IMG/VR virus record: IMGVR_UViG_3300046791_000324
Span: 1-58,320 of that record
Length of the DNA stretch: 58,320 nt
Strand: one strand, 5' to 3'
Origin: a virus
Taxonomy: Duplodnaviria > Caudoviricetes
A program made the position numbers and the translations under genes. The notes beneath the pieces are model-generated. The model was not told the DNA's origin. It was given only the letters and a program-made list of their open reading frames with translations, and did no database searches. Below are positions 14,394 through 51,326 of this stretch, in pieces (within the stretch, counting starts at the first letter, position 1; each line of letters starts with the position of its first letter).

Positions 14394-14465
14394 TGGTTGC
14401 GGAGACAGGAGTCGCACCTGTGGAGTTTTGCTTATGAGACAAAATTGAATCTCATTCTCTCCGCA
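14394..14465 (-). tRNA. Atypical tRNA-Met/Ile2 (CAT) with a minimal D arm
   Basis: TGCGGAG/CTCCGCA-A-CCA; GAAT-GAG-ATTC; TTTTGT-CTCATAA-GCAAAA; ACAGG-TGCGACT-CCTGT. Confidence 0.8.
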
Positions 14466-15765: not shown

Positions 15766-15953
15766 GTTTCGATTTTGATGCAGGGCTTTGTTGAGCCGAC
15801 CCCGGCGTAGTAAAAGTATTCTGTGGTGAGCGACACGGTTTCCGCGTTGTCAAAGTTGCTGTCCCAGAGTCCGTCGTTGACCAGGACGGGGACCTTCCCG
15901 TGGCCGGCGGACTGGAGCGTCTGCAATTCGAGAATGAGTTCGTCGAGTGTCAC
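15762..15953 (-). CDS. Hypothetical protein
   Basis: VTLDELILELQ...; GTGA and ATGA overlaps with neighbours. Confidence 0.6.
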   Translation of the reverse strand: MTLDELILELQTLQSAGHGKVPVLVNDGLWDSNFDNAETVSLTTEYFYYAGVGSTKPCIKIET

Positions 15954-16645
15954 TTGCCGCCCTCCTGTCGCCGCTTCATCTCGCGCGTGTAGAGCACGCC
16001 CACCGTGGACGCAAACCAGTAGCGACCGTTCGGCGCGGGGAAGCCCTGGCCCTGCATATACCGCGCGATGTGGCGGAAGGTCCACTTGTCGCCGTTGCGG
16101 CACTTCACAATCGTGGCAATCATTGCGCGCTCAGCGTCCGTCTGCCCGTAGGGCTTCGGGCCCCCACACGGCTCGCCGGTTTCCCGTGCGACCTTGCGCC
16201 GGCCAGCCTGGAGCTTCAACACGAGCTGCGCCTTTTCCCACTGAGCCAGTGCGCCCAGGAGCTGTCGAATCAAAACGCGTGTCGGGTCGGCGTCTGCCAT
16301 CACGAGTTCCTCGCCCGAGTCCGCGGCATAAACCTTGATGCCCTTCTTGCGGCACTCACTCAGGAAAATCTCCTGCACCATCAAGTCGCGTGCGATGCGT
16401 GACGCGTCTTCGACGACGATGGTTTCAATCCCGTGGGCCGCATTCGCGCCGGCCAACGAAAGAATTTCGTGCAGCCCCGCGCGGCTGTCGAACTCCGTGC
16501 CTCCGGACTGTTGGTCCTCGAAGGTCCTCACGATGCGCCAGCCCTTCTTGTCGCAGAAGCCGGAGATTTTGTTTTGCTGGCGGTCGAAGCCGCCGCCGTT
16601 GAGCTGCTCCTTCGTGGAGACGCGGCAGTATGCGAAAACTTTCAT
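15950..16645 (-). CDS. Serine recombinase (resolvase/invertase family)
   Basis: AYCRVSTKEQ (catalytic Ser), SGG...RAGL, DASRIARD, C-terminal GGPKPYG plus HTH. Confidence 0.92.
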   Translation of the reverse strand: MKVFAYCRVSTKEQLNGGGFDRQQNKISGFCDKKGWRIVRTFEDQQSGGTEFDSRAGLHEILSLAGANAAHGIETIVVEDASRIARDLMVQEIFLSECRKKGIKVYAADSGEELVMADADPTRVLIRQLLGALAQWEKAQLVLKLQAGRRKVARETGEPCGGPKPYGQTDAERAMIATIVKCRNGDKWTFRHIARYMQGQGFPAPNGRYWFASTVGVLYTREMKRRQEGGK

Positions 16646-32931: not shown

Positions 32932-33888
32932 ATGCAAACTGACAACCATCTCTCATCCTATCCGTCCATCTACGCCATCGGGCACCGCTATCTCAACGAG
33001 CTGTTGAGTGGCCCAGTTGTCGTCGAAGAAAAGGTGGACGGCTCACAATTCTCAATGTGCCGACTGCCTTGCGGCCTGCTCCAAGTCCGCAGCAAGGGCC
33101 AGGAGATTCACCTGGGCGCGGTCCCTCAGCTTTTCAACCACGCTGTCTCCACCGCTCAGACGTTGGACCTGCACCCCGGCTGGGTGTATCGCGGCGAGTA
33201 TTTGCAGAAGCCGAAGCACAACACGCTCACCTACTCGCGCACGCCTGCGAAGCACGTCATCCTCTTCGACGTGATGACCGGGCCCGAGGTTTACCTCACG
33301 CCTCAGGAGAAGCGGGTCGAGGCTACAAGGTTGGACTTGGACGTAGTCCCCACATTTTTTGAAGGCGAGCTGCATGGGCTCATGGAGGACCGCAGGCCGA
33401 ATGCCACGGACTTCCTCGCCCATGACAGTATCCTCGGCGGCTGCAAGGTCGAAGGCTTCGTCGTGAAAAACTACAACCGCTTCGGCATCGACAAGAAAAT
33501 CCTCATCGGCAAGTTCGTGAGCCAGGAGTTCAAGGAACGCCACGGCGGCGAGTGGAAGAAAGCGAACCCCGGCACGCAGGACGTGGTGCAGAACCTCATC
33601 GTGCAGCTTCGCACCGAAGCACGTTGGCGCAAGCAGATTCAACACCTGCGCGACGCCGGCACGCTGACCGACACGCCGCAGGACATCGGGCCACTGATGC
33701 GCGAGCTGGCGACGGACCTGTTGAAAGAGGAAACGGACTTCATCCGCGACACTCTTTTCAATCACTTCATCAAACAGATTCAGCGCGGCGTGGCCGGCGG
33801 CTTCCCCGAGTTCTACAAGAAAGAAATCGGCATCGTCTCCGCACCTGAGTTGACGCCCGAAGTCGCGCCTGCTACAGTCACGCAATGA
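32932..33888 (+). CDS. RNA ligase (Rnl2-like ATP-dependent ligase)
   Basis: EEKVDGSQF (motif I), YRGE (III), LFDV (IIIa), EGFVVKN (IV), GKFVS..FKE (V). Confidence 0.85.
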   Translation: MQTDNHLSSYPSIYAIGHRYLNELLSGPVVVEEKVDGSQFSMCRLPCGLLQVRSKGQEIHLGAVPQLFNHAVSTAQTLDLHPGWVYRGEYLQKPKHNTLTYSRTPAKHVILFDVMTGPEVYLTPQEKRVEATRLDLDVVPTFFEGELHGLMEDRRPNATDFLAHDSILGGCKVEGFVVKNYNRFGIDKKILIGKFVSQEFKERHGGEWKKANPGTQDVVQNLIVQLRTEARWRKQIQHLRDAGTLTDTPQDIGPLMRELATDLLKEETDFIRDTLFNHFIKQIQRGVAGGFPEFYKKEIGIVSAPELTPEVAPATVTQ

Positions 33889-37926: not shown

Positions 37927-39933
37927 ATGAGCCAAATCCTCGGTTTCGACTACGAAACTTTTTACCACAAATCGAAGAAGGTCGGCTACTCAGTCACCCT
38001 CATGGGCGACTACGCCTACATGCACAGCCCGCGCTTCGACGCCTACCTGCTCACGGTGTGCGACGACAAGGAGACCTGGGCCGGGCACCCGCGGGACTTC
38101 AACTGGGACGCCATCGACCACGAGACAACGCTCGTCTCTCACAACGCGCACTTCGACAGCGGCGTCCACGACCGCCTCGTCGAACTGGGCACCGCGCCGG
38201 CAATCAAGCCCGCACACTGGTTCTGCACGGCGAACATGTCCGCGTATCTCTGCAACCGCAGGTCCCTGGACGAGGCAGCCAAATTTTTGCTGGGCGTTGA
38301 GCTGGACAAGTCCGTTCGCGACAAGGCCAACGGCAAGACTGCCGACCAGATAAAGGCCGAGGGCTGGTGGAACGACATGGTGCGCTACGGACGCCGCGAC
38401 GCGGTGACCTGCCGCGAGCTGTGGATGAAGCACGGAGACAAGTGGCCGGAGTTCGAGCGCCAGCTCGCTGACCAGACCTCGCGCCAGGGCAAGCGCGGCG
38501 TGCAGGTGGACGTGGACAAGCTGACGGACTACATCAAGACGGCGCACACCATGCAGCTCGACTGCGAGGCCACGCTGCCCTGGATTGCCGAGGGCCACAA
38601 GCCAACGTCACCGAAGGCAATCGCTGAACGCTGCCGCATGGAAGGCATCCCGTCCCCGCCGGTCATCAGTCACGACGGAGAAGAGGCCTTCGACCTGTGG
38701 GAGAAAACCTACGCGCCACGTTTTGCCTGGGCCGCGAACGTCGCCAAGCTCCGCAGCATCCGCCAGTTCCTGGGCAGCCTGGAGACCATCAAGGAGCGCC
38801 TGACGCCCGAAGGCATCCTGCAATTCCGCTTGAAGTATTTCGGCGCTCACACGGGCCGCTGGTCCGGCGACGGCGGCGTCAACATGCAAAACTTCCGCAA
38901 GGAGCCGCTGTATCGCGACGACAAAGGTTTTCTCATCAACGAGGCGGACAGGCTCAAAGAAATCGACCACAACCTCGGCAAGTCCGGCACGGTCCCGAGC
39001 TTCGTCACCGCGACTCTCGATGTCCGTTCGCTTTTTATTCCGCGCGCCGGCAAGAAAATGATTGTGTCTGACCTCAGCCAGATTGAGCCGCGCGTGCTCG
39101 CCTGGGTGACAGGCAACCAAGAGCTGCTCGACCTGATGGCAGCCGGCCAGAGCCCCTACGAAGCCTTCGCGCGCCAGCAAATGGGCTGGACCGGCGGTGA
39201 CTTGAAGAAGGGAGACAAGGACCGCTACGCGCTGAGCAAGGCGCAGGTGTTGAGCCTCGGCTACCAAGCCGCCTGGGAAAAGTTCATCGCGATGGCAATG
39301 ACGCACGCGCGCATCGACATCACGGAAAAGGACCCGGAGTTCGTGCCCGTGCTGAACGAAGACGGAGAGCCCATCCTGAACAAGGACGGGTCCCCGAAGC
39401 TGGTCAGCGGCTACGGCAGCTTTTCCCGCGAGTGCGTGAAAAACTTTCGGGCCAACAACCCGAAAATCGTCGGGCTGTGGAAGCACCTGGACAAGGCCTA
39501 CAAAGACAGCCTGCTCGACGGCGAGTTTTCCATCGAGCTGCCGTCCGGTCGCAAGCTGACCTACCGCAAGCTGGCCCGCGAGTGGGTGAAGCAATACGAC
39601 GAAGAGACTGACCAGTGGCGCAACCGCTGCTGCGTTCGGGCCGAGGGAATTAAGAATGGCCGGCTGGTGCGGATTCCTTACTACGGCGGGATGCTCACGG
39701 AGAACATGATTCAAGCAATCGCCCGTGAAGTTTTCGCCGAACACTGCTTGGCCCTGGACCGAACCTTCGGCGACGGCACGGTGTTGTGGACGGCGCACGA
39801 CGAAACCATCAACGAGGTTGACCAATCTGTGACGGCGAAAGATGTCGAGCATGTGATGTCACAGTGCCCCACATGGCTCCAAGGTTGTCCAATCGCTGCC
39901 GAAGCGAAAGAGGTTCCCTACTACCTGAAATGA
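37927..39933 (+). CDS. polA: DNA polymerase, family A, with 3'-5' exonuclease
   Basis: DYET, HNAHFD, HTGRWSG, motif A DLSQIEPR, motif B K...LSLGY, motif C HDE. Confidence 0.95.
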   Translation: MSQILGFDYETFYHKSKKVGYSVTLMGDYAYMHSPRFDAYLLTVCDDKETWAGHPRDFNWDAIDHETTLVSHNAHFDSGVHDRLVELGTAPAIKPAHWFCTANMSAYLCNRRSLDEAAKFLLGVELDKSVRDKANGKTADQIKAEGWWNDMVRYGRRDAVTCRELWMKHGDKWPEFERQLADQTSRQGKRGVQVDVDKLTDYIKTAHTMQLDCEATLPWIAEGHKPTSPKAIAERCRMEGIPSPPVISHDGEEAFDLWEKTYAPRFAWAANVAKLRSIRQFLGSLETIKERLTPEGILQFRLKYFGAHTGRWSGDGGVNMQNFRKEPLYRDDKGFLINEADRLKEIDHNLGKSGTVPSFVTATLDVRSLFIPRAGKKMIVSDLSQIEPRVLAWVTGNQELLDLMAAGQSPYEAFARQQMGWTGGDLKKGDKDRYALSKAQVLSLGYQAAWEKFIAMAMTHARIDITEKDPEFVPVLNEDGEPILNKDGSPKLVSGYGSFSRECVKNFRANNPKIVGLWKHLDKAYKDSLLDGEFSIELPSGRKLTYRKLAREWVKQYDEETDQWRNRCCVRAEGIKNGRLVRIPYYGGMLTENMIQAIAREVFAEHCLALDRTFGDGTVLWTAHDETINEVDQSVTAKDVEHVMSQCPTWLQGCPIAAEAKEVPYYLK

Positions 39934-39982: not shown

Positions 39983-42262
39983 GTGCTAAGATACCTCAAG
40001 AACCTTACGTCCACGCAAACCTTCGAGGGTGAGCCGTGGAAATTCGACAAACTCTCCTCCGTTCCTCAAAGCTGCATCGACGACAAGGCTGCCCGGACCG
40101 CCTGGGCAAACCTCTCCGGGACCGATTACATGTTCTACTCCGGCTTCGTCGCCGTCAACGAGAACATGCGCGTGAGCGAACGTGGGCTAAAGGACAACGA
40201 CAACCGACCCTGGGAAATGCGCGCGTTCGTCGGCGACTACGATGCCAAGTTCACTGAGCAGGAAGTCGATAGCGCAATCGCTCGGATGGACATCAAGCCA
40301 AACTGGGTGGAGCGTTCTCTCTCCGGCAACTGGCGCTTGGTCTGGATTTTCGCCGTGCCCATCGCCCTCTCCTCTCGCAACTTCGCGGTTCACCTTCTCA
40401 AGCAGCTTCACGAGTTCCTTCCGATTCTCCAGTTGAGCAACCTCGACGTTGGCTACCTGGAACCGTCTCGCTACTACACTGCCGGCTCTCAGTGGCGGCA
40501 GATTGAGCCTGACCCCATCCCGCACGCGACCGTCTGCGGCTGGCTGTTGAAGGTCTGCCGGACCTACGCGTGGAAAGACAACGAGCCCGGCGTGACCATC
40601 CCCGCGAAGATTGTCGCCGACCGCTTCCGCGAGCTGTCCGACAAGTTCCCCCGCTTCAAGGAGTGGGAAGGCGACTTCGACTTCGGTCTGCAAGGCCCGT
40701 CCTTCTGGATTGAAGGCTCCACGTCGAAGGCGTCCGCGATGGTGTGCGAGACCGGCATGAAAACTTTTGCGGCGCACGCGGGCGGCAAGGGCTGGTGGAC
40801 ATGGCCCGAGCTGCTCGGAGCTGACTGGGTCAAACAGTTCGAGCAGAACCGAACGGGGAACGCGGTCAAGGACATCTACTTCGACGGCAAAGATTACGGC
40901 GTCAAGCGGGAGTCCGGGCGCTGGGATATTCTGAACAAGGACAACGTCATCAACGAGCTGGTGGTGATGCGCGGCCTCACGCGTGACATCAGCAAGAAGA
41001 AGGGCGAGACCTTTTCCGAAGTCGAAGGCGCGATTGCTTTCATTCACGGAGAGCAGCGGGTCAAGGGCATGAAGTCCTTCGCCTTCTGGCCCAAGGGCAA
41101 AATCCCTTTCAACAGCGAGTGGTATATCAACACGCACAACGTCGATGCCATGTCGCCGGCTGACGGCAAAGCGGTGTGGGGCCCCGAGGGACAGTTCCCC
41201 TGGATTTCCGAATACTACGACAACTTTTTCACGACGCCCGACCAGCTCCCTTTCTACTTGAGCTGGGCCAGCTACTTCTACAAGGGCTGCTACGAGCGCG
41301 ACCTGCAACTCGGTCACGCAATCTACATCGCGGGGCCCGTGGCCTGCGGCAAGACTTTCGGCTGCCGGAAAATCCTCGGCGCGATTGTCGGAGGATTCTC
41401 GGAAGCCGCGGCACACCTGCTCGGCGAGACCACCTTCAACTCTCAGCTTTTCGACCACGCTCTGCACGTCGTTGACGACACTGCGGTCACCGAGAACGAG
41501 AGGATGCTCCGCCGGTTCAGCGAGAACGTCAAGAAGAACACGGCGAACAACGAGCGCGAGTGCAACGAAAAGTTCCGCCTGGGTGGCGTCGTGGGCAGCC
41601 GGGCCCGGACGCACATCACCAGCAACCTCGACGCTGACGCCGTCCTGCATCCCGACCTCGACGCCAGCATGGCAGACAAGGTCATGATGTTCATGGCGCA
41701 GTCGCCCAAGAAAACTTTTCCGCCGGCCAAAGAGCTTGACGCCATCCTCGCGCGCGAGCTTCCGTGGTTCTGCCGCTTCCTGTTTGACTGGGTGGTCCCG
41801 CCCCAGTGCGTCGGCACGTCGCAGGATGAAGCCCGCTTCGGCGGCATCAAGGCCTATCACAACCCCGAGATGGTGACGAGCGCGCAGCGGTCCAGCAAGA
41901 CCTCGGCTCTCGCTCAGGTCCTCATCGTGTGGATGCGCGAGTATTTCACGAAGACCGAGCCCGAAGCCAACAACTGGGTGGGCTGCGCTCTCGACCTCTA
42001 TCAACAGTTCCAATCCGTGGCCGGCATCTCGGAGGTCCTCCGGCAAATGCAATTCCCCAAATTTAACCGCGACCTGCACACTCTCAGCAAGGGCAAACTC
42101 TTCAAAATCGAAGAGAGGCCCGGGGTCGCAGGCGTTCACACATACTCAATCGACCGTTCGACTCACTACCCCAAGAACCTTCGGGTTCTGGACGTGCCTG
42201 AGCAAAGGACTGACAGCCGATTCCAGAAAAACCCGACGAATGAACAACGAGAACAGCAATAA
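39983..42262 (+). CDS. Primase-helicase (prim-pol-like N-terminus plus SF3/DUF5906-like ATPase)
   Basis: GDYD...SLSGNWRLVW; GPVACGKT, VVDD, TSN; class-II motif at 39945-39975. Confidence 0.8.
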   Translation: MLRYLKNLTSTQTFEGEPWKFDKLSSVPQSCIDDKAARTAWANLSGTDYMFYSGFVAVNENMRVSERGLKDNDNRPWEMRAFVGDYDAKFTEQEVDSAIARMDIKPNWVERSLSGNWRLVWIFAVPIALSSRNFAVHLLKQLHEFLPILQLSNLDVGYLEPSRYYTAGSQWRQIEPDPIPHATVCGWLLKVCRTYAWKDNEPGVTIPAKIVADRFRELSDKFPRFKEWEGDFDFGLQGPSFWIEGSTSKASAMVCETGMKTFAAHAGGKGWWTWPELLGADWVKQFEQNRTGNAVKDIYFDGKDYGVKRESGRWDILNKDNVINELVVMRGLTRDISKKKGETFSEVEGAIAFIHGEQRVKGMKSFAFWPKGKIPFNSEWYINTHNVDAMSPADGKAVWGPEGQFPWISEYYDNFFTTPDQLPFYLSWASYFYKGCYERDLQLGHAIYIAGPVACGKTFGCRKILGAIVGGFSEAAAHLLGETTFNSQLFDHALHVVDDTAVTENERMLRRFSENVKKNTANNERECNEKFRLGGVVGSRARTHITSNLDADAVLHPDLDASMADKVMMFMAQSPKKTFPPAKELDAILARELPWFCRFLFDWVVPPQCVGTSQDEARFGGIKAYHNPEMVTSAQRSSKTSALAQVLIVWMREYFTKTEPEANNWVGCALDLYQQFQSVAGISEVLRQMQFPKFNRDLHTLSKGKLFKIEERPGVAGVHTYSIDRSTHYPKNLRVLDVPEQRTDSRFQKNPTNEQREQQ

Positions 42263-42938
42263 CTACTACCGCGCGAATGAAGACCTGCGGTTCAAACTCA
42301 CCACACCCGAAGAAGAGGCCAAACTTTTCCTGGCGGCGAAAAAGGGCGACGCAAACGCTCGTGAGTTCCTTATCAAAAACCATCTGCTCTATGCAGCAAG
42401 ATTTGCTCGCCGCGCAAATCGTGGCCGGCTTCCAGATGATGAAGTAATCTCCGCCGTGAACGCCGCCCTGATGAACGCCATCGACCGCTTCGACCCCGCC
42501 TGGGGCAATAGGTTCACGCGTTACCTCACGCCTTTTCTGCGCGGCGCAATCGCCGGCCTGTGGAAGGAGCGCAACGTGGTGACGCCGTCGTCGCACTCTG
42601 ACAAGTTCCCGACGTTCACGCCTTACAAGGAGCACGACGACGAGCATGGGAACGACGCCGCGCGCATCATGCCCAAGGCAGTGCAACAGGCCTGCGTCGA
42701 GACGGCCCCGCCGACTGACGAAATCGTTTCTCAGAAAGAGGAACTAGGCCTCAACCTCGCGATGCTCAAGAAGTGCAAGTGCAAGCTGACGCGCCCCGAG
42801 CGGGAGCTGCTGACGCTCATCTACGACGTGGGCCAGAGCATGGCAGACATCGCCCGAGACCGCGGGGTGAGCCGACAAGCGGTCCACGCGGCACATGGGC
42901 AGATTATTACCAAGCTGAGAAAGGGATTTAGGAAGTGA
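42240..42938 (+). CDS. Phage RNA polymerase sigma factor (sigma70 family)
   Basis: LTTPEEEAKL...GDANAREFLIKNHL (regions 1.2/2.1), AIDRFDPAWGNRFTRY (2.3), SMADIARDRGVSRQAV (4.2). Confidence 0.9.
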   Translation: MNNENSNNYYRANEDLRFKLTTPEEEAKLFLAAKKGDANAREFLIKNHLLYAARFARRANRGRLPDDEVISAVNAALMNAIDRFDPAWGNRFTRYLTPFLRGAIAGLWKERNVVTPSSHSDKFPTFTPYKEHDDEHGNDAARIMPKAVQQACVETAPPTDEIVSQKEELGLNLAMLKKCKCKLTRPERELLTLIYDVGQSMADIARDRGVSRQAVHAAHGQIITKLRKGFRK

Positions 42939-43635: not shown

Positions 43636-44205
43636 GAGCCGCTGTGGTTCCGACTCGCGAGGCTCTCACCCGCACGCAGCTCGACACGCTGCAAACCGTC
43701 GTGAACACGCTGAGCCCTTTCATCCTGGGGCACCGCAGCATCTTCATGATGTCGGAGGAAGAGACGCCCCGGAAGATTGACGGTGGCAGCCGCAGTGACC
43801 TTCGCCAACGTGTGCGGACGCATCGACGCGATTCTCGCGGACCAAACGCGCTGGGACACGTCGAAGCACGACGAGCTATATGGCTCGATTCAAGCAGTGC
43901 AGAACGCGCAGGTTGAATATCTGAAAGCGCAGACGGACGCCGCCAAGAGCCCGGCCTACCAGCTCCGGCCAATCATCGCCAACGACGGCTTCCAGTTCAT
44001 CTGTTACCACGGCGACATCACCAAGTCCGGCTACGCCATCATCGGCTGCGGACAAACGCCGGCAGAGGCTCTCGCCGCTTTCGACGCAGCTTTTCACAAG
44101 ACCCCGCAGCAACAAGTAATCATGGCATCGCAGGCCGCCGCCGACGAAGCCCCAAAACCAAAACGGAAACCCAAAACAGAACCGCCCTCGGGCAGCTTAA
44201 TATGA
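43599..44205 (+). pseudogene. Hypothetical gene split by a frameshift near 43780
   Basis: Coding-like ORFs 43599-43916 and 43777-44205 join in frame if one ACGGTGGC 8-mer is restored. Confidence 0.5.
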
Positions 44206-45413
44206 CCTGGACAAAGCAAGACATCCAACAATTCCGAACCGCCGTGATGTCCGGCATGACCGACAAGGCTCTCGCGCAGACCTTCGGCGTCAGCGAGCCC
44301 GCCATCCGCCGCGCCCGTCAGCGGTTCGCCCCGGAGAGCGTGAAGACCCGCGTCGCTGCCGACAAGAAACACGGCTTCGACACCGTCTATTGCGACGCTG
44401 TGTCCAACCCGACGGGGGAGAACACTGCCACGCAAGTCAACCCGGCCTGGATTGACGCAGAGGTCACATCAGAGACCGTCGGGCCCCTCGGGCAAACGGG
44501 CCCCGTCGGAGGTCCCGGTGACCCTGGCGCTCCTGGTCCGTGTCCCCTGATGGAAGCGGCCAAGGAAATCCCGACCGAGTTCGGCAAAATCCCGCTCGAC
44601 ATTTTCGACGGAGATGCCTGGACGAAAATCGGTCTCGTGTCAGACACACACTTGGCCTGCCGCGAGGAACGCCTCGACGCCCTGCACGCGCAGTATGACC
44701 TGTTCGTTCGTGAAGGCGTGAAGGACGTTTTCCACGCCGGCAACATCGTGGACGGCTACGTTCCGCGCATCAACGGCGCGAGCGTCATCGAGACCAGCAT
44801 CGACGGGCAGGCAATGTATTGCGCCCGCCAATATCCGCAACGGGACGGCATCACCACGCACTTCATCACGGGCGACGACCACGAGGGCTGGTGGCAGAAA
44901 GAGGGCTTCAACTTCGGCGCTTACTTGCAGATGGTCTGCGAGCGCATGGGTCGCACGGACATGAAGTATATCGGCCACGTCGAAGCCGACGTTGAGCTGA
45001 CCTGCGGAGAGTTCGTCAACCGCATGAAGATTCAGCATCCGGGCGGCGGCAGTGCCTACGCCAGGAGCTACAAGGGCCAGAAGATGGTCGAGAGCTTTCA
45101 GGGCGGAGAGAAGCCGGCCATTCTGGTGCAGGGCCACTACCACGTCAGCGGCTACAGCTTCGACCGCAACGTCCACATCATCGGGATGCCTGGGTTCAAG
45201 GACCAAGACATGTTCACCCGCAAGCAACATCTCCGCTGCGAAATCGGCGGCGTGATTCTCGAATTCAAAATGTCGAGCACGACGGGAGCCATCACGCGCA
45301 TCCGCCCAGAGTTCAACATGTTTTTCGACCGAGGCTTCTACAAGAAGTTCCTTCCGTCGGACGGCGTGCTCCGCGGTCAACCGAAATCCATCATCACGGG
45401 GAACGGACAATGA
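44202..45413 (+). CDS. Calcineurin-like metallophosphoesterase with N-terminal HTH
   Basis: SDTH, HAGNIVDG, TGDDHE, QHP, QGHYH; short Gly-X-Y linker. Confidence 0.85.
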   Translation: MTWTKQDIQQFRTAVMSGMTDKALAQTFGVSEPAIRRARQRFAPESVKTRVAADKKHGFDTVYCDAVSNPTGENTATQVNPAWIDAEVTSETVGPLGQTGPVGGPGDPGAPGPCPLMEAAKEIPTEFGKIPLDIFDGDAWTKIGLVSDTHLACREERLDALHAQYDLFVREGVKDVFHAGNIVDGYVPRINGASVIETSIDGQAMYCARQYPQRDGITTHFITGDDHEGWWQKEGFNFGAYLQMVCERMGRTDMKYIGHVEADVELTCGEFVNRMKIQHPGGGSAYARSYKGQKMVESFQGGEKPAILVQGHYHVSGYSFDRNVHIIGMPGFKDQDMFTRKQHLRCEIGGVILEFKMSSTTGAITRIRPEFNMFFDRGFYKKFLPSDGVLRGQPKSIITGNGQ

Positions 45414-45760
45414 GCAACAGAACCTGGACACTGACCGAGGCTCTCGCCCTCGTCCGAGACCTTGAGGAACACTTCTCAACTGTGGCGGACGGAGAACGGT
45501 TCCACTTCGCCCTCGGTGGCTCGGTGCTGCACAAGGGGGAGTCCAAGAAGGACCTCGACATCTTCGTGTATCCCCGCAAGAAGCCCGACGCGGGCTGGGG
45601 CTACACGTATGCTGCGATGGCAATCGGGGAGTATCTCAGCCTCGCGCTGAGACGCTGCACCAGAAACAAAGAAGAGGAGCCCCAGTATCGCGACGCCAAG
45701 AACGTGTGCTACGCCTACACCAGCGCCGGCAAACGCATAGACTTCTTTTTCCTCTCGTGA
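45410..45760 (+). CDS. Minimal nucleotidyltransferase (Pol-beta superfamily)
   Basis: LGGSVL...KDLDIFV...RIDFF. Confidence 0.7.
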   Translation: MSNRTWTLTEALALVRDLEEHFSTVADGERFHFALGGSVLHKGESKKDLDIFVYPRKKPDAGWGYTYAAMAIGEYLSLALRRCTRNKEEEPQYRDAKNVCYAYTSAGKRIDFFFLS

Positions 45761-45777: not shown

Positions 45778-45909
45778 ATGAAAAACGTCCTGTGCGGATG
45801 TTGCAAGCAGAACATCTGGTGGGACAGGGACGCGCGGTTCTGGTGCGAGAACAAAGCGTGCAAAGAATTCAAACTCGTCGAATACAACCCGAAATTCAAA
45901 AACCCATGA
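45778..45909 (+). CDS. Small zinc-finger protein
   Basis: CGCC...WD...WCENKAC. Confidence 0.45.
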   Translation: MKNVLCGCCKQNIWWDRDARFWCENKACKEFKLVEYNPKFKNP

Positions 45910-46289
45910 AACCACTAAACTCAGACGGCAAGCCGGCCAACGAGCTGCACGAAGGCAGTTGGATTGGCGTGGACCTCGACGGCACGCTCGCGCACTACGA
46001 CGGCTGGAAGGGCGTCTCTCATATCGGCGAGCCGATTCCCGCGATGGTTGAGCGGGTGAAGCGTTGGTGCGCCGAGGGAAAAGAGGTTCGCATCTTCACG
46101 GCGCGCGCCTACAACGACCTGTCAGCCCTCAAGTGGATTTATGCTTGGTGCGAAAAGCATCTTGGCCAGAGGCTGCGAGTGACCTGCGAGAAGGACCTGA
46201 AAATGTATGAGCTGTGGGACGACCGTTCTGTGTGCGTCGAACGCAACACGGGCCGAGTCCTCGGCTGCAACCCAACGGACACACTATGA
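45906..46289 (+). CDS. HAD-family phosphatase (PNKP-phosphatase/nucleotidase-like)
   Basis: WIGVDLDGTLA, IFTAR, K...LWDDR. Confidence 0.85.
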   Translation: MKPLNSDGKPANELHEGSWIGVDLDGTLAHYDGWKGVSHIGEPIPAMVERVKRWCAEGKEVRIFTARAYNDLSALKWIYAWCEKHLGQRLRVTCEKDLKMYELWDDRSVCVERNTGRVLGCNPTDTL

Positions 46290-47063: not shown

Positions 47064-47561
47064 ATGAACAAAACCATCAAAACCCTATTGGCGCTGGCAG
47101 GACTGCTCGCGGTAATTAACACCGCTTCGGCGGGAGTCAAGAAAATCGGCACGCTCAACGGCTTCGATGTCTATCGCATCAAGAACATGGGCCTCTTCTG
47201 CCCGAGCACGACCACGACCGTTTTGGCGGACCCGAAGAAACCCGGGACCATCGAAGGCGTCGTGTCGAGTGCCTCAGGCACGTCGGTCCTCGGCAGTGTG
47301 GCGGCTCCTGCGGCTACCGCGGCGAGCGCGTATCTGCACAAGCCCGACACGACCACGGTGAGCCAATCCGGCGGCGGAGCCTCGGCCACGTCGAACGCTG
47401 ACGCGAGCGCGAAGTCCAAAGCGACCGGCGGGGCTGGCGGAGTGGGCAACGGCGGCGCAGGCGGCACTGGCAACGGTGGCGCGGGCGGAAACGGCACGGC
47501 CAATGGCGGCGGACAGTTTGTTCCCCCGGGCCACATCAACAACCCGTCGAGCAACAACTAA
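47064..47561 (+). CDS. Exported Gly/Ser-rich protein with its own promoter and terminator
   Basis: Signal peptide ending ASA; GGAGG repeats; TTGACG-N18-TAACCT upstream. Confidence 0.75.
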   Translation: MNKTIKTLLALAGLLAVINTASAGVKKIGTLNGFDVYRIKNMGLFCPSTTTTVLADPKKPGTIEGVVSSASGTSVLGSVAAPAATAASAYLHKPDTTTVSQSGGGASATSNADASAKSKATGGAGGVGNGGAGGTGNGGAGGNGTANGGGQFVPPGHINNPSSNN

Positions 47562-47593: not shown

Positions 47594-47627
47594 GGGCGGG
47601 CACGGATTGCTCGCCCCTTTTTCTTTT
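47594..47627 (+). terminator. Rho-independent terminator
   Basis: GGGCGGGCA-CGGAT-TGCTCGCCC plus T tract. Confidence 0.75.
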
Positions 47628-47752
47628 CATGAGCCAATACCCGATGACCATCGCAGCGCAATGCGCGCGGGCTCGGCTGCGGCGCAAGCTGGCTGTCTTG
47701 ATGCTGTTCCTGGTCCTCGTCGGGCCGATTGCCGAAGATGACGCGGATGCAT

Positions 47753-47780
47753 TTGACAAGTTGCCGGGGTGTGGTAAAAT
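47753..47780 (+). promoter_or_regulatory. Near-consensus sigma70 promoter: TTGACA, 16-nt spacer ending TGG, TAAAAT
   Basis: 6 nt upstream of the first RNA of cluster 2. Confidence 0.8.
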
Positions 47781-47786
47781 GTCTGC

Positions 47787-47974
47787 GGTTCGGTAGCACA
47801 AACGGAATAGTGCAGTCGCCACTTGAGTGTGGACCTCACGAGTAGGCAGGAGATGACCACGGAGTAATCAACCGGGCTGGCGTCCCTCATTGAAAGTGAC
47901 AGGGTGAGCCTGGAGGGAGTGATTCGCCCGAAAAGCAAACCCTGATGCCGGTTCGAGCCCGGCCTGAACCACCA
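47787..47974 (+). ncRNA. 188-nt tRNA-scaffolded RNA with a 132-nt structured insert
   Basis: GGTTCGG/CTGAACC-A-CCA; D arm GCAC/GTGC; T arm GCCGG-TTCGAGC-CCGGC; no canonical anticodon arm. Confidence 0.8.
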
Positions 47975-47979
47975 ATTTT

Positions 47980-48084
47980 GTCGGTGACGGTCCGCAGTGG
48001 GGTTGACCGGGACGGGACGGCGAGTCAACGCGCCTGTCAGCTCCCGCCCGCTGCGCCCGGGTTCGTTTCCCGGGGCTGACACCA
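47980..48084 (+). ncRNA. tRNA-like RNA (6-bp acceptor, 6-bp T stem) with a pseudoknot-capable core
   Basis: GTCGGT/GCTGAC-A-CCA; CCCGGG-TTCGTTT-CCCGGG; CGCAGTGGG/CCCGCTGCG; GTTGAC/GTCAAC. Confidence 0.7.
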
Positions 48085-48091
48085 ATTTTTC

Positions 48092-48190
48092 GGGAGGGTG
48101 GCGAAACTGGTAAACGCGTCGCTCCACAAGGGCGGCTGCCGGATATTGGCCATAAGCCGGTGTGTGCGGGTTCGACCCCCGCCCCTCCCA
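48092..48190 (+). tRNA. Type-II (Leu-like body) tRNA with an aberrant anticodon loop CC-ACA-AG
   Basis: GGGAGGG/CCCTCCC-A; GCG-AAACTGGTAAA-CGC; TCGCT/GGCGG; long variable arm; GCGGG-TTCGACC-CCCGC. Confidence 0.7.
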
Positions 48191-48241
48191 CTTTTTCTGA
48201 AATAAAACTTGCGCCGGGCGCAGCCTGTGGCACATTACGGT

Positions 48242-48604
48242 ATGATGAACGAACAAGAACGATTTGAGCTGGACGCGGAAAACGACGGCTTCACGAACGA
48301 CTTTCAGCGGGCCCTCGCGGTCTCTCACTCGCGCCGCGCACCGTCTCAGCGCGGGCAGGCCGAGGCCCTGGTGGCTGCCGGCTTCGCCGTCGTGGTGGAA
48401 CGCCGCCCCGAGTATTGCGGCATCACTGACGCCATCCTGGGCGAGAGCCTGACCATCGCCGGGCATTTCAAGACCCGCGCCGAGGCCTCCGCTCACGCCG
48501 AAGCCAGCCACTGCGATTTTGGCGACAGCACCTTCGAGGTTTGGCCCCGCGAGGTTCCCTTTTTGCCCCGCGAGGTTGTGACCTCCGACGACCTGCCTTT
48601 CTGA
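48242..48604 (+). CDS. Early hypothetical protein
   Basis: Leaderless ATG after TTGCGC-N16-CACATT; ends DDLPF. Confidence 0.65.
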   Translation: MMNEQERFELDAENDGFTNDFQRALAVSHSRRAPSQRGQAEALVAAGFAVVVERRPEYCGITDAILGESLTIAGHFKTRAEASAHAEASHCDFGDSTFEVWPREVPFLPREVVTSDDLPF

Positions 48605-48836: not shown

Positions 48837-49436
48837 ATGAAGCCCAAAGGACCAGTTTTTGACGCGGAGTGGCGCAGGAATTCCGAATTGCGGCCCGTCC
48901 CTCTCTGTGAAGTCGCAGCATTCGTCTCCGCACACTACCTCAAGAAACGCCCGGCCATCGTTCTGCTATCGCTCGGCGTTTTTTCCTTTGGTAGGCTGGT
49001 CGGCATGGTGCTTTTCTCGGCACCCCCGAAACAATCGGATGTTCGGTATGGCGGAAAGACCTGGGAACTAGCCCGGCTGTATCTGCTGGACAGTATCCCG
49101 GCCAACGCTGAAACTTGGGCAATCTCTGGCAGTGTGCGACATATCCGCAAGAACTATCCGGACGTGCGGTGCCTTGTGTCTTACGCAGACCCTAGCGCGG
49201 GACACGCCGGGACGATATACCGGGCGGCGAACTGGGAGTCTGACGGTCGGACCGATGAAGGCCGCAAGACACCACGTCATGACTATGCCGATGCGCGCAC
49301 CGGGAAAAAATACGGACGCCGAGGGAATGTCCCTGCGGGAGCCGAATTGGTTAGAATCCCACGGGTCTCTAAGTTTCGGTTTAAGCTGGTCTTGCACCCC
49401 GTAAAACTACGGACTTGCGCCGCCACGTCCCGATGA
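48837..49436 (+). CDS. mom: Mom-like GNAT DNA-modification protein
   Basis: HYL, WELARL, LVSYAD...GH.GTIYRAANW signature of the Mu Mom family. Confidence 0.8.
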   Translation: MKPKGPVFDAEWRRNSELRPVPLCEVAAFVSAHYLKKRPAIVLLSLGVFSFGRLVGMVLFSAPPKQSDVRYGGKTWELARLYLLDSIPANAETWAISGSVRHIRKNYPDVRCLVSYADPSAGHAGTIYRAANWESDGRTDEGRKTPRHDYADARTGKKYGRRGNVPAGAELVRIPRVSKFRFKLVLHPVKLRTCAATSR

Positions 49437-49673: not shown

Positions 49674-51326
49674 ATGAGCGAAACAGCATACGTCGAAATC
49701 ACTGGAAACACCTTCCCCGTGAAAGAAGCCCTGAAGGCGATGGGCGCACGGTGGAACGGCGTCAAGAAGTGCTGGACCGTCAAGGCCGAGGTCGCCGAGA
49801 AGGCCCTCGCGCTGGTGAAGGGCGGTTGCCGCCCCGTGGCCAAGCCCACGACCCTCCGCGAGGTCACCGGCAACGTGGACTGGTCCGCTGAGCAGACCGC
49901 GATTTTCTCCTGGTTCGCGACCGGCCAGGGCAACCTCGTTGTGCAGGCTCGCGCGGGCACGGGCAAGACCACCACCATCAAGGAAGCCTTCAACCACGCC
50001 CGCGAAGAGGGCCGCTTGCTCTACGCCGTGTTCAACAAGAAAAATCAGGTCGAGGCGCAGGAGAAAATCACCGATGGTCGCGTTGAGGTCAAGACCCTGC
50101 ACAGCCTCGGCTACAGCTTCATCAAGCGCGTCTGGACCGATGCGAAGCCCGAGGACAACGTCGAGTTTGACCGTATCGAGCACGTCTCCCCGGGCCTGCC
50201 TGAGGAAATCACGACGCCCGTCGTCAAGCTGGTCGGCTTCTGCAAGAACACCTTCGTGAACGTCCCGAGCCTCAACGAAGTGCTGGAGCTGGCGGACGCC
50301 CGCGACATCTCCGCTCCCGATAACCTGGAGGCCGCTTTTCCGGTCGCCAAGCTGAGCCAGATTGCAATCGACGTGTTGCGCTGCACGCTGGAGAAGGACG
50401 GACAGGGCCGAATTTCTTTCAACGACATGGTCTGGTTGCCCGTCGCCGCCGGCTGGGTGAAGCCCTCCTTTTCCCTCGTCGTCGTGGATGAAGCGCAGGA
50501 CATGAACCTGCCGCAGTTGCTGATGGCTGAGCGCGCCTGCAAAACGGGCGGACGCATCTGCATCGTGGGCGACGACAAGCAGGCAATCTACGGCTTCCGC
50601 GGTGCGGCCTCGGACGGAATGCACCTGATGAAGCAACGGCTTAACGCGAGCACGCTCGGCCTGACCACGACCTACCGCTGCCCGAAGGCGGTTGTCGCGC
50701 TGGCCAACGAAATCGTGACTGACTACACCGCTGCGCCGTCCGCCCCCGAGGGCGAAGTGCGCGAGCTGGCCCTGGGTGCCGCGGTTGCCTCTCTGGTGCC
50801 CGGTGACGCCGTCCTGAGCCGCCTGAACGCCCCGCTGATGGGCATCTGCCTCGGCCTGCTCCGCAAGGGCACTCCGGCACGCGTCGAAGGCCGCGACATC
50901 GGCCAACAGCTCGTCGGAATGGTCCGCAAGCTGAAAGCCAAGAGCGTCCCCGATTTTCTCTCGAAGCTGGCGCGCTGGGGCGAAAAGCAAATCGCGCGCG
51001 CGAACGCTGCCGGCGGAAAATACGTCCAGAACAAAATCGAGCTGGCCAACGACCAAGTCGCGACGCTCACGGCAATCGCCGACGGCTGCGCGAACGTCTC
51101 CCAGGTCGAGGCCCGCATCACGGAAATCTTTCAGGACAGCCAGGGCAACCGGACGCCCGCCGTTGTCTGCTCGTCGGTCCACAAGGCGAAGGGCCTGGAG
51201 TGGAACACGGTTTGCCTCGTCAACAGCTCGTTCCGTCACGGGCTCGCGGATGCGAACAGCGAAGAGGCGAACATTTTCTACGTCGCCGTGACCCGCGCCA
51301 AGAAAATCTTGATTCGCGGGCTGTGA
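49674..51326 (+). CDS. UvrD/Rep-like SF1 helicase
   Basis: ARAGTGKTT, VDEAQD, VGDDKQAIYGFRGA, TYRCP, HKAKGLEW, YVAVTRAK. Confidence 0.93.
   Translation: MSETAYVEITGNTFPVKEALKAMGARWNGVKKCWTVKAEVAEKALALVKGGCRPVAKPTTLREVTGNVDWSAEQTAIFSWFATGQGNLVVQARAGTGKTTTIKEAFNHAREEGRLLYAVFNKKNQVEAQEKITDGRVEVKTLHSLGYSFIKRVWTDAKPEDNVEFDRIEHVSPGLPEEITTPVVKLVGFCKNTFVNVPSLNEVLELADARDISAPDNLEAAFPVAKLSQIAIDVLRCTLEKDGQGRISFNDMVWLPVAAGWVKPSFSLVVVDEAQDMNLPQLLMAERACKTGGRICIVGDDKQAIYGFRGAASDGMHLMKQRLNASTLGLTTTYRCPKAVVALANEIVTDYTAAPSAPEGEVRELALGAAVASLVPGDAVLSRLNAPLMGICLGLLRKGTPARVEGRDIGQQLVGMVRKLKAKSVPDFLSKLARWGEKQIARANAAGGKYVQNKIELANDQVATLTAIADGCANVSQVEARITEIFQDSQGNRTPAVVCSSVHKAKGLEWNTVCLVNSSFRHGLADANSEEANIFYVAVTRAKKILIRGL

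Follow-up and report, generated by a model that had tools for sequence, protein, structure and literature searches.

A candidate non-decoding tRNA mimic heading a tandem cassette of irregular tRNA-like units in a phage genome

The presence of transfer RNA (tRNA) genes in phages is commonly put down to codon supply or to the replacement of tRNAs cleaved by host defences. In engineered tRNA scaffolds, which are man-made, a foreign RNA replaces the anticodon arm, and the resulting chimera undergoes processing, and gains stability, as a tRNA does. Such scaffolds have been described for recombinant RNA (PMC3753655). Bacteriophage T4 produces two small stable RNAs, species 1 and species 2 (genes rnaC and rnaD), whose roles are still described as unknown in two accounts (PMC3014915, PMC9697503). 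Lak megaphages are reported to have overlong tRNA genes with 'enigmatic introns', the mechanism of their removal being unsettled (bioRxiv 10.1101/356790). According to a study of soil metatranscriptomes, irregular tRNA-like RNAs are co-transcribed in tandem, and some of them are charged, are unused in translation and were suggested to be regulatory (Mukai et al. 2017, PMC5389517). Here we describe an element, e1, at positions 47787-47974 of the IMG/VR virus record IMGVR_UViG_3300046791_000324. The whole record, 58,320 bases with a completeness of about 81% and a G+C content of about 60%, was analysed and is called the window below. Behind one predicted promoter, this soil phage carries three irregular tRNA-like units in tandem (e1, e2 and e3), of which e1 comes first and none is a standard decoder. 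Our preferred reading, which we put forward tentatively, is that e1 is a non-decoding tRNA mimic and the first unit of a promoter-driven operon of three irregular tRNA look-alikes. The parts of the cassette are as follows.

47753-47780, + strand: promoter of the sigma-70 type, TTGACA-16-TAAAAT, its -10 box extended by TG
47787-47814, + strand: 5' half of e1 (acceptor strand, U8 A9, D arm, A26)
47815-47946, + strand: insert of e1, 132 nucleotides (nt), replacing the anticodon arm and the variable region
47947-47974, + strand: 3' half of e1 (T arm, acceptor strand CTGAACC, A73, encoded CCA)
47975-47979, + strand: AUUUU spacer after the CCA of e1
47980-48084, + strand: e2, second tRNA-like unit (6-bp acceptor stem, 6-bp T stem with loop TTCGTTT, no D arm, A73-CCA)
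48092-48190, + strand: e3, third tRNA-like unit (Rfam tRNA model, 43 bits, with 36 extra nt)

The tRNA frame of e1 is real. The acceptor strand GGTTCGG (47787-47793) pairs with CTGAACC (47964-47970) at all seven positions, one of the pairs being G-U. U8 and A9 (47794-47795) are followed by a D arm of four pairs (47796-47813, GCAC / AAACGGAATA / GTGC) with A14, G18G19 and A21 present, and by A26 (47814). The T arm (47947-47963, GCCGG / TTCGAGC / CCGGC) has five pairs, and the discriminator A73 (47971) precedes an encoded CCA (47972-47974). In total, 16 of 16 stem pairs are intact, and U8, A14, G18G19, A21, U54U55C56 and A58 are all present. In the computed ensemble the helices of the frame have pair probabilities of 0.82-0.999 (0.95-0.999 in the 5' half, 0.82-0.93 in the T stem). 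A scan of both strands of the window for a frame with all of these features returned e1 as the only site, with none in 200 dinucleotide shuffles, and a looser scan with optional D arm and CCA returned two sites versus 0.185 per shuffle. The candidate promoter consists of TTGACA (47753-47758), a 16-nt spacer containing TG, and TAAAAT (47775-47780), matching the consensus at 11 of 12 positions; it is the sole site called between 46500 and 49500, where 0.4 are expected, and it ends 6 nt before the first nucleotide of e1, G47787. An earlier note on this DNA, made from the letters alone, had marked a tRNA frame with acceptor, D arm, T arm and ACCA at 47787-47974, a 132-nt insert at 47815-47946 in place of the anticodon and variable arms, and a near-consensus promoter 6 nt ahead of them; all of these were found where it had placed them.

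Element e1 thus has the acceptor stem, discriminator and CCA of a canonical tRNA as well as its U8, D arm and T arm, and it lacks the anticodon arm and is missed by the family model. Rfam gave no match to e1 at the gathering threshold, and neither RF00005 nor any other model matched a 311-nt slice at E<=10. With default settings ARAGORN reports a single tRNA in the whole window, the tRNA-Met at 14394-14465, and does not call e1.

We asked for every single contiguous excision that would leave, besides a variable region of 4-24 nt, an anticodon stem of 5 nt (4 or 5 pairs) and a loop of 7 nt with U33 and a purine at position 37; the stem start was also shifted by 0-3 nt. The insert of e1 yields no solution, shifts included, whereas shuffled inserts average 0.4-6.7. 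As controls, each of five frames of 70-75 nt (standard tRNAs and a cloverleaf from a related phage, L011 below) gives 22-29 solutions, and two phage tRNAs with long arms (L217 and L257) give 38-40. When C33 is permitted, e1 has 4 and 52 solutions, which is at chance level (0.21 and 0.09 of the shuffles reach or exceed these counts). As no excision is available, e1 has no recoverable anticodon arm. The exhaustive search bears out the earlier remark that removing a segment does not restore an anticodon stem.

The locus is not an assembly artefact, as a 440-nt contig from another metagenome run (X2) spans 47719-48158, and 151-nt contigs from two more runs bridge the junction of the 5' frame and the insert. 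These contigs come from a k-mer search that led to 10 runs of 9 studies, none recorded as RNA; contigs of four of the runs (X2-X5) were compared, the likely source run being set aside. The cassette persists across these independent contigs. The X2 contig differs from the window by 11 substitutions and two single-base indels (about 97% identity), and its frame is intact. The changes within e1 are an A inserted after 47799 in the D loop, 47889 A>C, 47918 A>G, the loss of one base at 47926, and 47939 A>G. When the four changes in the insert are mapped on the predicted fold, three are unpaired and 47939 A>G turns the pair U47905-A47939 into U-G. In X4 and X5 there is a D-loop substitution, 47803 C>A. 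Thus changes in the frame of e1 are limited to variable D-loop positions (the A after 47799, and 47803). Indels of both signs, +1 and -1, lie inside e1, which argues against a coding frame across it. In the promoter, 47779 A>G gives TAAAGT.

For e2 and e3 the variants reveal selection on the fold. The change 48077 T>C of e2 (X2 and X3) converts an acceptor G-U pair into G-C, and the discriminator 48081 is C in those runs. In e3, 48123 T>C converts U-G into C-G, and one low-depth X3 contig carries both 48167 C>T and 48181 G>A, so that a C-G pair of the T stem becomes U-A. For e1 the variants are only compatible with selection, being too few to prove structure.

The other two units are irregular in their own ways. 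Between its acceptor and T stems, e2 has one long hairpin in a region of about 70 nt (minimum free energy (MFE) z -1.86). Unit e3 has a 7-nt loop CCACAAG with C at position 33, a 29-nt extra arm and no encoded CCA, and is followed by CUUUUUC; its D arm appears to resemble that of tRNA-Leu. The units are separated by the spacers AUUUU(GUC) and AUUUUUC. The CCA+AUUUU junction of e1 is repeated after e2 and after tRNA-like units of two related phages (L011 and L029 below). No promoter was called between e3 and the next gene of the window.

Relatives of the phage were collected through its helicase gene, giving 79 IMG/VR, 80 metagenome and 80 bacterial-genome loci. The features next to the cassette, by which these loci are compared, are the following.

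47064-47561: gene upstream of the cassette, closed by a terminator-like hairpin
47594-47616, + strand: hairpin and U run resembling an intrinsic terminator, ending the upstream gene and forming the 5' border of the cassette region
47629-47796, + strand: small open reading frame (ORF) of 55 aa with a hydrophobic centre and with the cassette promoter in its 3' end
48242-48604: protein of 120 aa beginning with MMNEQER, next after the cassette on its downstream side, no family match
48837-49436: Mom-like DNA modification gene (Pfam Mom, 1.3e-27)
49674-51326: UvrD-type helicase, the anchor for relatives

The closest phages, with helicases 80-87% identical, share the upstream gene and the terminator and then diverge. 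Hairpins equivalent to 47594-47616 stand upstream of the cassettes in L011, L005 and L003. At the same site in L011 (2036-2328; helicase 87% identical), a very stable hairpin of 90 nt (z -3.8) is followed by a clean cloverleaf of 73 nt and then by a multi-arm frame of 122 nt. The loop of the cloverleaf is GUUUUAA, and its D and T loops are without the usual G19/C56 partners; both frames end with CCA+AUUUUU. L005 carries a 102-nt frame behind the promoter TTGACA-16-TAAAGT, and a second T-arm element. In L003 a long leader precedes a tRNA-like unit of 72 nt, whose 'anticodon' loop has 5 nt, and a frame of about 160 nt with a large insert and one acceptor mismatch. Alignment of the latter with e1 gave one local match of 15 of 20 positions (our own count) and no convincing homology. 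The cassette is absent from L002 and L004. In two more distant relatives, L009 (5892-5998) and L010 (5886-5992), an element of 107 nt with acceptor, T arm and long hairpin stands directly upstream of the helicase gene; the two copies are 89% identical, and their hairpin, T stem and acceptor each differ by compensatory changes. L029 has a tRNA-like unit at another place. Except for the L009/L010 pair, every cassette element is a singleton in sequence. When 1.4 Mb of loci were scanned for a relaxed frame, 23 hits were obtained, versus 5-6 in shuffles. What recurs across the cassettes is the acceptor/T-arm top half, often with elbow and CCA, and the lower half differs in each phage.

The 55-aa ORF, whose codons F-D-K form the -35 box of the promoter and whose stop codon falls within e1, has tblastn matches in L011 (72% identity over 47 aa) and L002 (59% over 39 aa), and none in Pfam or NCBIfam. 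Homologues of the 120-aa protein were found in the cassette-bearing L003 and L011, and none were found in the cassette-less L002 and L004, nor in L005. The Mom-like gene has no tblastn match (E<=1e-3) among the 79 IMG/VR loci. The cassette probably belongs to an accessory (conflict) locus with rapid turnover.

No homologue of e1 was found in any search made. The region 47600-48300 has no blastn match, in the 'distant' setting, among 50,697 GenBank phage records. For e1, e2 and e3 nothing was found at E<=0.01 in the 79 IMG/VR loci (blastn with word size 7; blastn and nhmmer) and the 80 metagenome loci. The large collections were searched for e1 by exact patterns or through protein anchors: a 29-mer, a 22-mer and a 23-mer of e1 have no exact hit in IMG/VR, the 29-mer spanning the polymorphic D-loop positions. 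The homologues of the insert that the earlier note had looked to were thus missing also when exact patterns containing insert sequence were used. The T-arm pattern retrieved 41 IMG/VR loci, mostly ordinary tRNAs and none with the acceptor strand of e1; blastn of e1 against them gave significant matches only at the T arm and 3' end.

Frames longer than a standard tRNA occur elsewhere. Among the IMG/VR matches listed for a tRNA 3' half with CCA+ATTTT (135 matches in 129 loci), 69 frames have standard length, 20 are of 81-95 nt and 9 are longer than 95 nt; a further 25 are without a perfect 5' partner within 300 nt, several of them resembling tmRNA (transfer-messenger RNA) ends, and 12 are without a T stem. 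By this length distribution oversized frames are a minority but are not unique. As a separate observation, oversized tRNA frames of about 100-120 nt or more ending with CCA+ATTTT were seen in L217, L229, L257, L313, L312 and L320. Some of them have an intact anticodon arm together with a very long extra arm, and others have 40-60 nt inside the anticodon region.

The following scheme is consistent with these data. The host RNA polymerase would start at or beside G47787. The units would be cut apart at the AU-rich spacers and matured by host tRNA-processing enzymes, for which e1 retains an intact acceptor stem, D/T elbow and A73-CCA. The outcome would be a stable RNA of about 188 nt, taken for a tRNA by host or phage factors that read the top half. 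As its anticodon arm is replaced, e1 cannot decode and offers no normal anticodon loop. It may act on a tRNA-binding factor as a decoy, sponge or competitor, and conflict between phage and host is the most plausible setting; the insert would mainly substitute for the decoding domain. The mimic reading follows from the fact that e1 keeps the top-half elements read by tRNA binders without the decoding arm. Further, turnover of the cassette with retention of the top half is as expected of an arms-race accessory locus.

Several observations weigh against this reading. Firstly, no homologue of e1 was found in these searches, so that e1 offers no covariation. Secondly, the divergence of the insert in X2 (4 of 132 positions) is like that of the flanks, so that no special constraint is visible. 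The underlying variant calls come from contigs of depth 2-4, those of X3-X5 covering the stretch in part. Thirdly, a promoter like that of the window was called in one of three relatives scanned, namely L005, not in L011 or L003. Fourthly, the anchor helicase has a best identity of 33% in the scan of bacterial genomes, which therefore gives no clue to the host. Finally, a mimic does not need 132 nt, since e2 manages with a hairpin, and the size of the insert suggests that it may matter in its own right.

A broader and more doubtful proposal is that e1-e3 and the cassettes of the sister phages form an unrecognised class of hypervariable phage operons encoding mimics of the tRNA top half, which would be decoys or inhibitors of tRNA-targeting immunity of the host or of tRNA sensors. 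Their RNAs would be matured, CCA-ended and perhaps aminoacylated like tRNAs. The immune targets might be anticodon nucleases and toxins modifying the acceptor end, and the choice of the trapped effector would depend on what replaces the lower half.

Genes for replication and accessory functions surround e1. Other features of the window are as follows.

14394-14465, - strand: tRNA-Met (CAT), the sole standard tRNA of the window
15950-16645, - strand: serine recombinase (Resolvase domain), 1.5 kb from tRNA-Met
32932-33888: RNA ligase
37927-39933: family A DNA polymerase
42240-42938: sigma factor
44202-45413: metallophosphoesterase
45410-45760: protein of 116 aa without a family match; a nucleotidyltransferase-like G-S...D-x-D motif is visible by eye
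45792-46289: protein with weak similarity to HAD/NT5C or polynucleotide kinase proteins
near e1, - strand: polyvalent protein of 1,786 aa with ADP-ribosyltransferase and GNAT domains

The tRNA-Met and the nearby serine recombinase may form an integration module. The RNA ligase, the metallophosphoesterase, the 116-aa protein and the HAD/NT5C-like protein may form a set for RNA end healing and sealing. By profile annotation, none of the neighbouring proteins beyond the RNA ligase is tRNA-specific. The antisense ORF of 364 aa has no Pfam match at E<=1.

The explanation proposed by the earlier note was a natural tRNA-scaffolded functional RNA. On this reading the frame would serve only processing and stability, and the 132-nt insert would be the functional RNA, for instance a protein sponge, an aptamer or an antisense module. 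We consider it unlikely, though it accounts for a number of facts. Another sample retains the large insert with about 97% identity; of its four changes there, that from A-U to G-U at 47905/47939 leaves the best predicted helix paired, the other three being unpaired in the MFE structure; the architecture resembles that of tmRNA and of engineered scaffolds; and L003 holds a frame of about 160 nt with a large insert at the same locus. On the other hand, the predictions do not support a special structure of the insert. Its MFE of -39.8 kcal/mol is that of shuffled sequences (z -0.11; 86 of 200 shuffles fold as well), and for the whole e1 RNA z is -0.58. The sole robust predicted helix of the insert pairs CAGGGU (47900-47905) with ACCCUG (47939-47944), with a probability of about 0.95. 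Of the structures drawn in the note, the first extended hairpin has pair probabilities of 0.15-0.52 and the long interrupted helix 0.001-0.04; the CCC/GGG pairs of the CCCT/AGGG contact reach about 0.01, computed as a nested helix only and not as a pseudoknot. Enforcing the proposed helices gives -56.2 instead of the MFE of -63.3 kcal/mol, that is, 7 kcal/mol worse. The insert is unmatched in Rfam at E<=10 and, as described above, is without a homologue in GenBank phages, in the 159 helicase-anchored IMG/VR and metagenome loci and in the three exact-pattern scans of IMG/VR. The cassette is complementary to other parts of the phage genome no more than by chance (longest 14 nt, E 0.07), and a count by eye of GGA (CsrA-type) motifs indicates no enrichment. 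The inserts of related cassettes are mutually unrelated. The note had not drawn on the two further units or on the cassettes of the relatives, which alter the reading. That the top half recurs and the inserts do not favours a tRNA mimic at least as much as a scaffolded payload. Thus the note was right about a genuine, promoter-adjacent tRNA frame that is not an ordinary intron-containing tRNA, and its insert of defined structure was not confirmed.

It is improbable that e1 is a relic, a tRNA gene wrecked by an insertion and being lost, or that the tRNA-like folds have no function of their own and act as mere processing or stability punctuation in the 5' leader of the mRNA further downstream (from 48242). 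As none is called ahead of them, the genes there may use the promoter of the cassette; the L009/L010 element lies directly upstream of the helicase gene; and the cassettes are dispensable, as L002 and L004 do without them. However, a frame with 16 stem pairs free of mismatches and all conserved tertiary nucleotides is unexpected in a decaying gene, the fact that changes of e2, e3 and L009/L010 preserve pairs is evidence of selection on the folds, and the CCA encoded by e1 and e2 would be superfluous for a mere cleavage signal.

An intron-bearing tRNA, from which a ribozyme or an endonuclease together with the phage RNA ligase would remove the insert to leave a decoding tRNA, has slighter prospects still. 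When introns are allowed, ARAGORN calls e1 as tRNA-Arg(TCG) with a 103-nt intron at 33/34, the gene products of the phage include an RNA ligase, a metallophosphoesterase and the weak HAD/NT5C-like protein, and the Lak megaphages provide a parallel in their reported introns. However, the anticodon stem of the ARAGORN model has only 3 Watson-Crick pairs, and when the 132 nt are shuffled within the intact frame, an intron-bearing tRNA is still reported in 113 of 200 constructs, so that the call carries no information. The absence of excisions retaining U33, with the C33 solutions at chance level, also speaks against splicing. No Intron_gpI or self-cleaving ribozyme model of Rfam matches e1 at E<=10, and neither an allele nor a joint lacking the insert was seen in contigs of the four DNA runs. 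Nor are the ligase and phosphoesterase genes specific to cassette-bearing relatives, the metallophosphoesterase occurring both with and without a cassette.

Two kinds of intron were considered separately and rejected. A group I intron has no catalytic-core match and no restorable arm in e1, and the insert has just 132 nt; the smallest natural group I introns known are about 200 nt long. For a protein-spliced intron of the bulge-helix-bulge type the requirement for a mature arm fails, the motif itself not having been searched for.

It is very improbable that e1 resembles a miniature tmRNA, or is linked to translation in some other way, and is charged and taken into the ribosome: the topology is that of tmRNA, with a tRNA-like domain and the anticodon arm swapped for a large insert, and by eye the insert contains a short open frame of 15 codons ending at UGA, but ARAGORN finds no tmRNA by default and at thresholds of 80% and 70% of the default gives only permuted or overlapping calls with 'Tag not identified', tmRNA-family Rfam models are unmatched, position 3:70 is U-A and not G-U, and the end of the frame is without the usual hydrophobic tag.

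Several known systems bear comparison with e1. In tmRNA (SsrA), as in e1, the ends form an acceptor stem with T arm and CCA, and a large insert replaces the anticodon arm. The two differ in that tmRNA is about 360 nt long and e1 188 nt, and e1 has a full D arm, the pair U3-A70, where G3-U70 is the identity element for alanine charging, and no recognisable tag frame or set of pseudoknots. In engineered scaffolds the replacement of the anticodon arm is similar, but it is the work of man.

The tRNAs of Lak megaphages are reported to have assigned anticodons and excision points, whereas e1 has no recoverable anticodon arm. The RNAs of Mukai et al. 2017, as described in passages of the supplement, are about 76-90 nt long, have 8/4 or 9/3 branches or an extra loop, and keep the anticodon loop. 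By comparison of descriptions only, e1 differs in its 7/5 branch, 132-nt insert and lack of an anticodon loop, and e2 in its 6/6 branch. The irregular units of the present cassette stand in tandem behind one predicted promoter, from which they may be transcribed together.

T4 species 1 RNA (rnaC, 139 nt) lies at the end of a tRNA cluster and has a T arm CCGGG-UUCGAAU-CCCGG, paired ends and long internal hairpins. Likewise, e1 belongs to a tRNA-like operon and combines a T arm and paired ends with a long insert. The sequence similarity of rnaC and rnaD to e1 consists of T-arm matches of 15-17 nt only. In rnaC the acceptor-like stem has 5 of 7 pairs, the D arm is absent, and CCA is not encoded in the annotated RNA; unlike e1, it folds far better than shuffles (z -4.6). 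In its architecture, T4 species 1 RNA is the nearest phage precedent for e1.

Element e1 is a member of none of these systems; in kind, it would be a tRNA-like stable RNA with a replaced anticodon domain. In the open-access literature searched, no description was found of a phage tRNA frame that lacks an anticodon and has an insert of more than 100 nt, and genes like e1 are overlooked by standard tRNA finders. A perfect top half, a dropped decoding part and a cassette swapped between relatives point to tRNA mimicry at the RNA level as a separate, fast-evolving tool of phages. Such a tool would offer a handle both on the oversized tRNAs of large phages and on the 50-year-old puzzle of the T4 species 1 and 2 RNAs.

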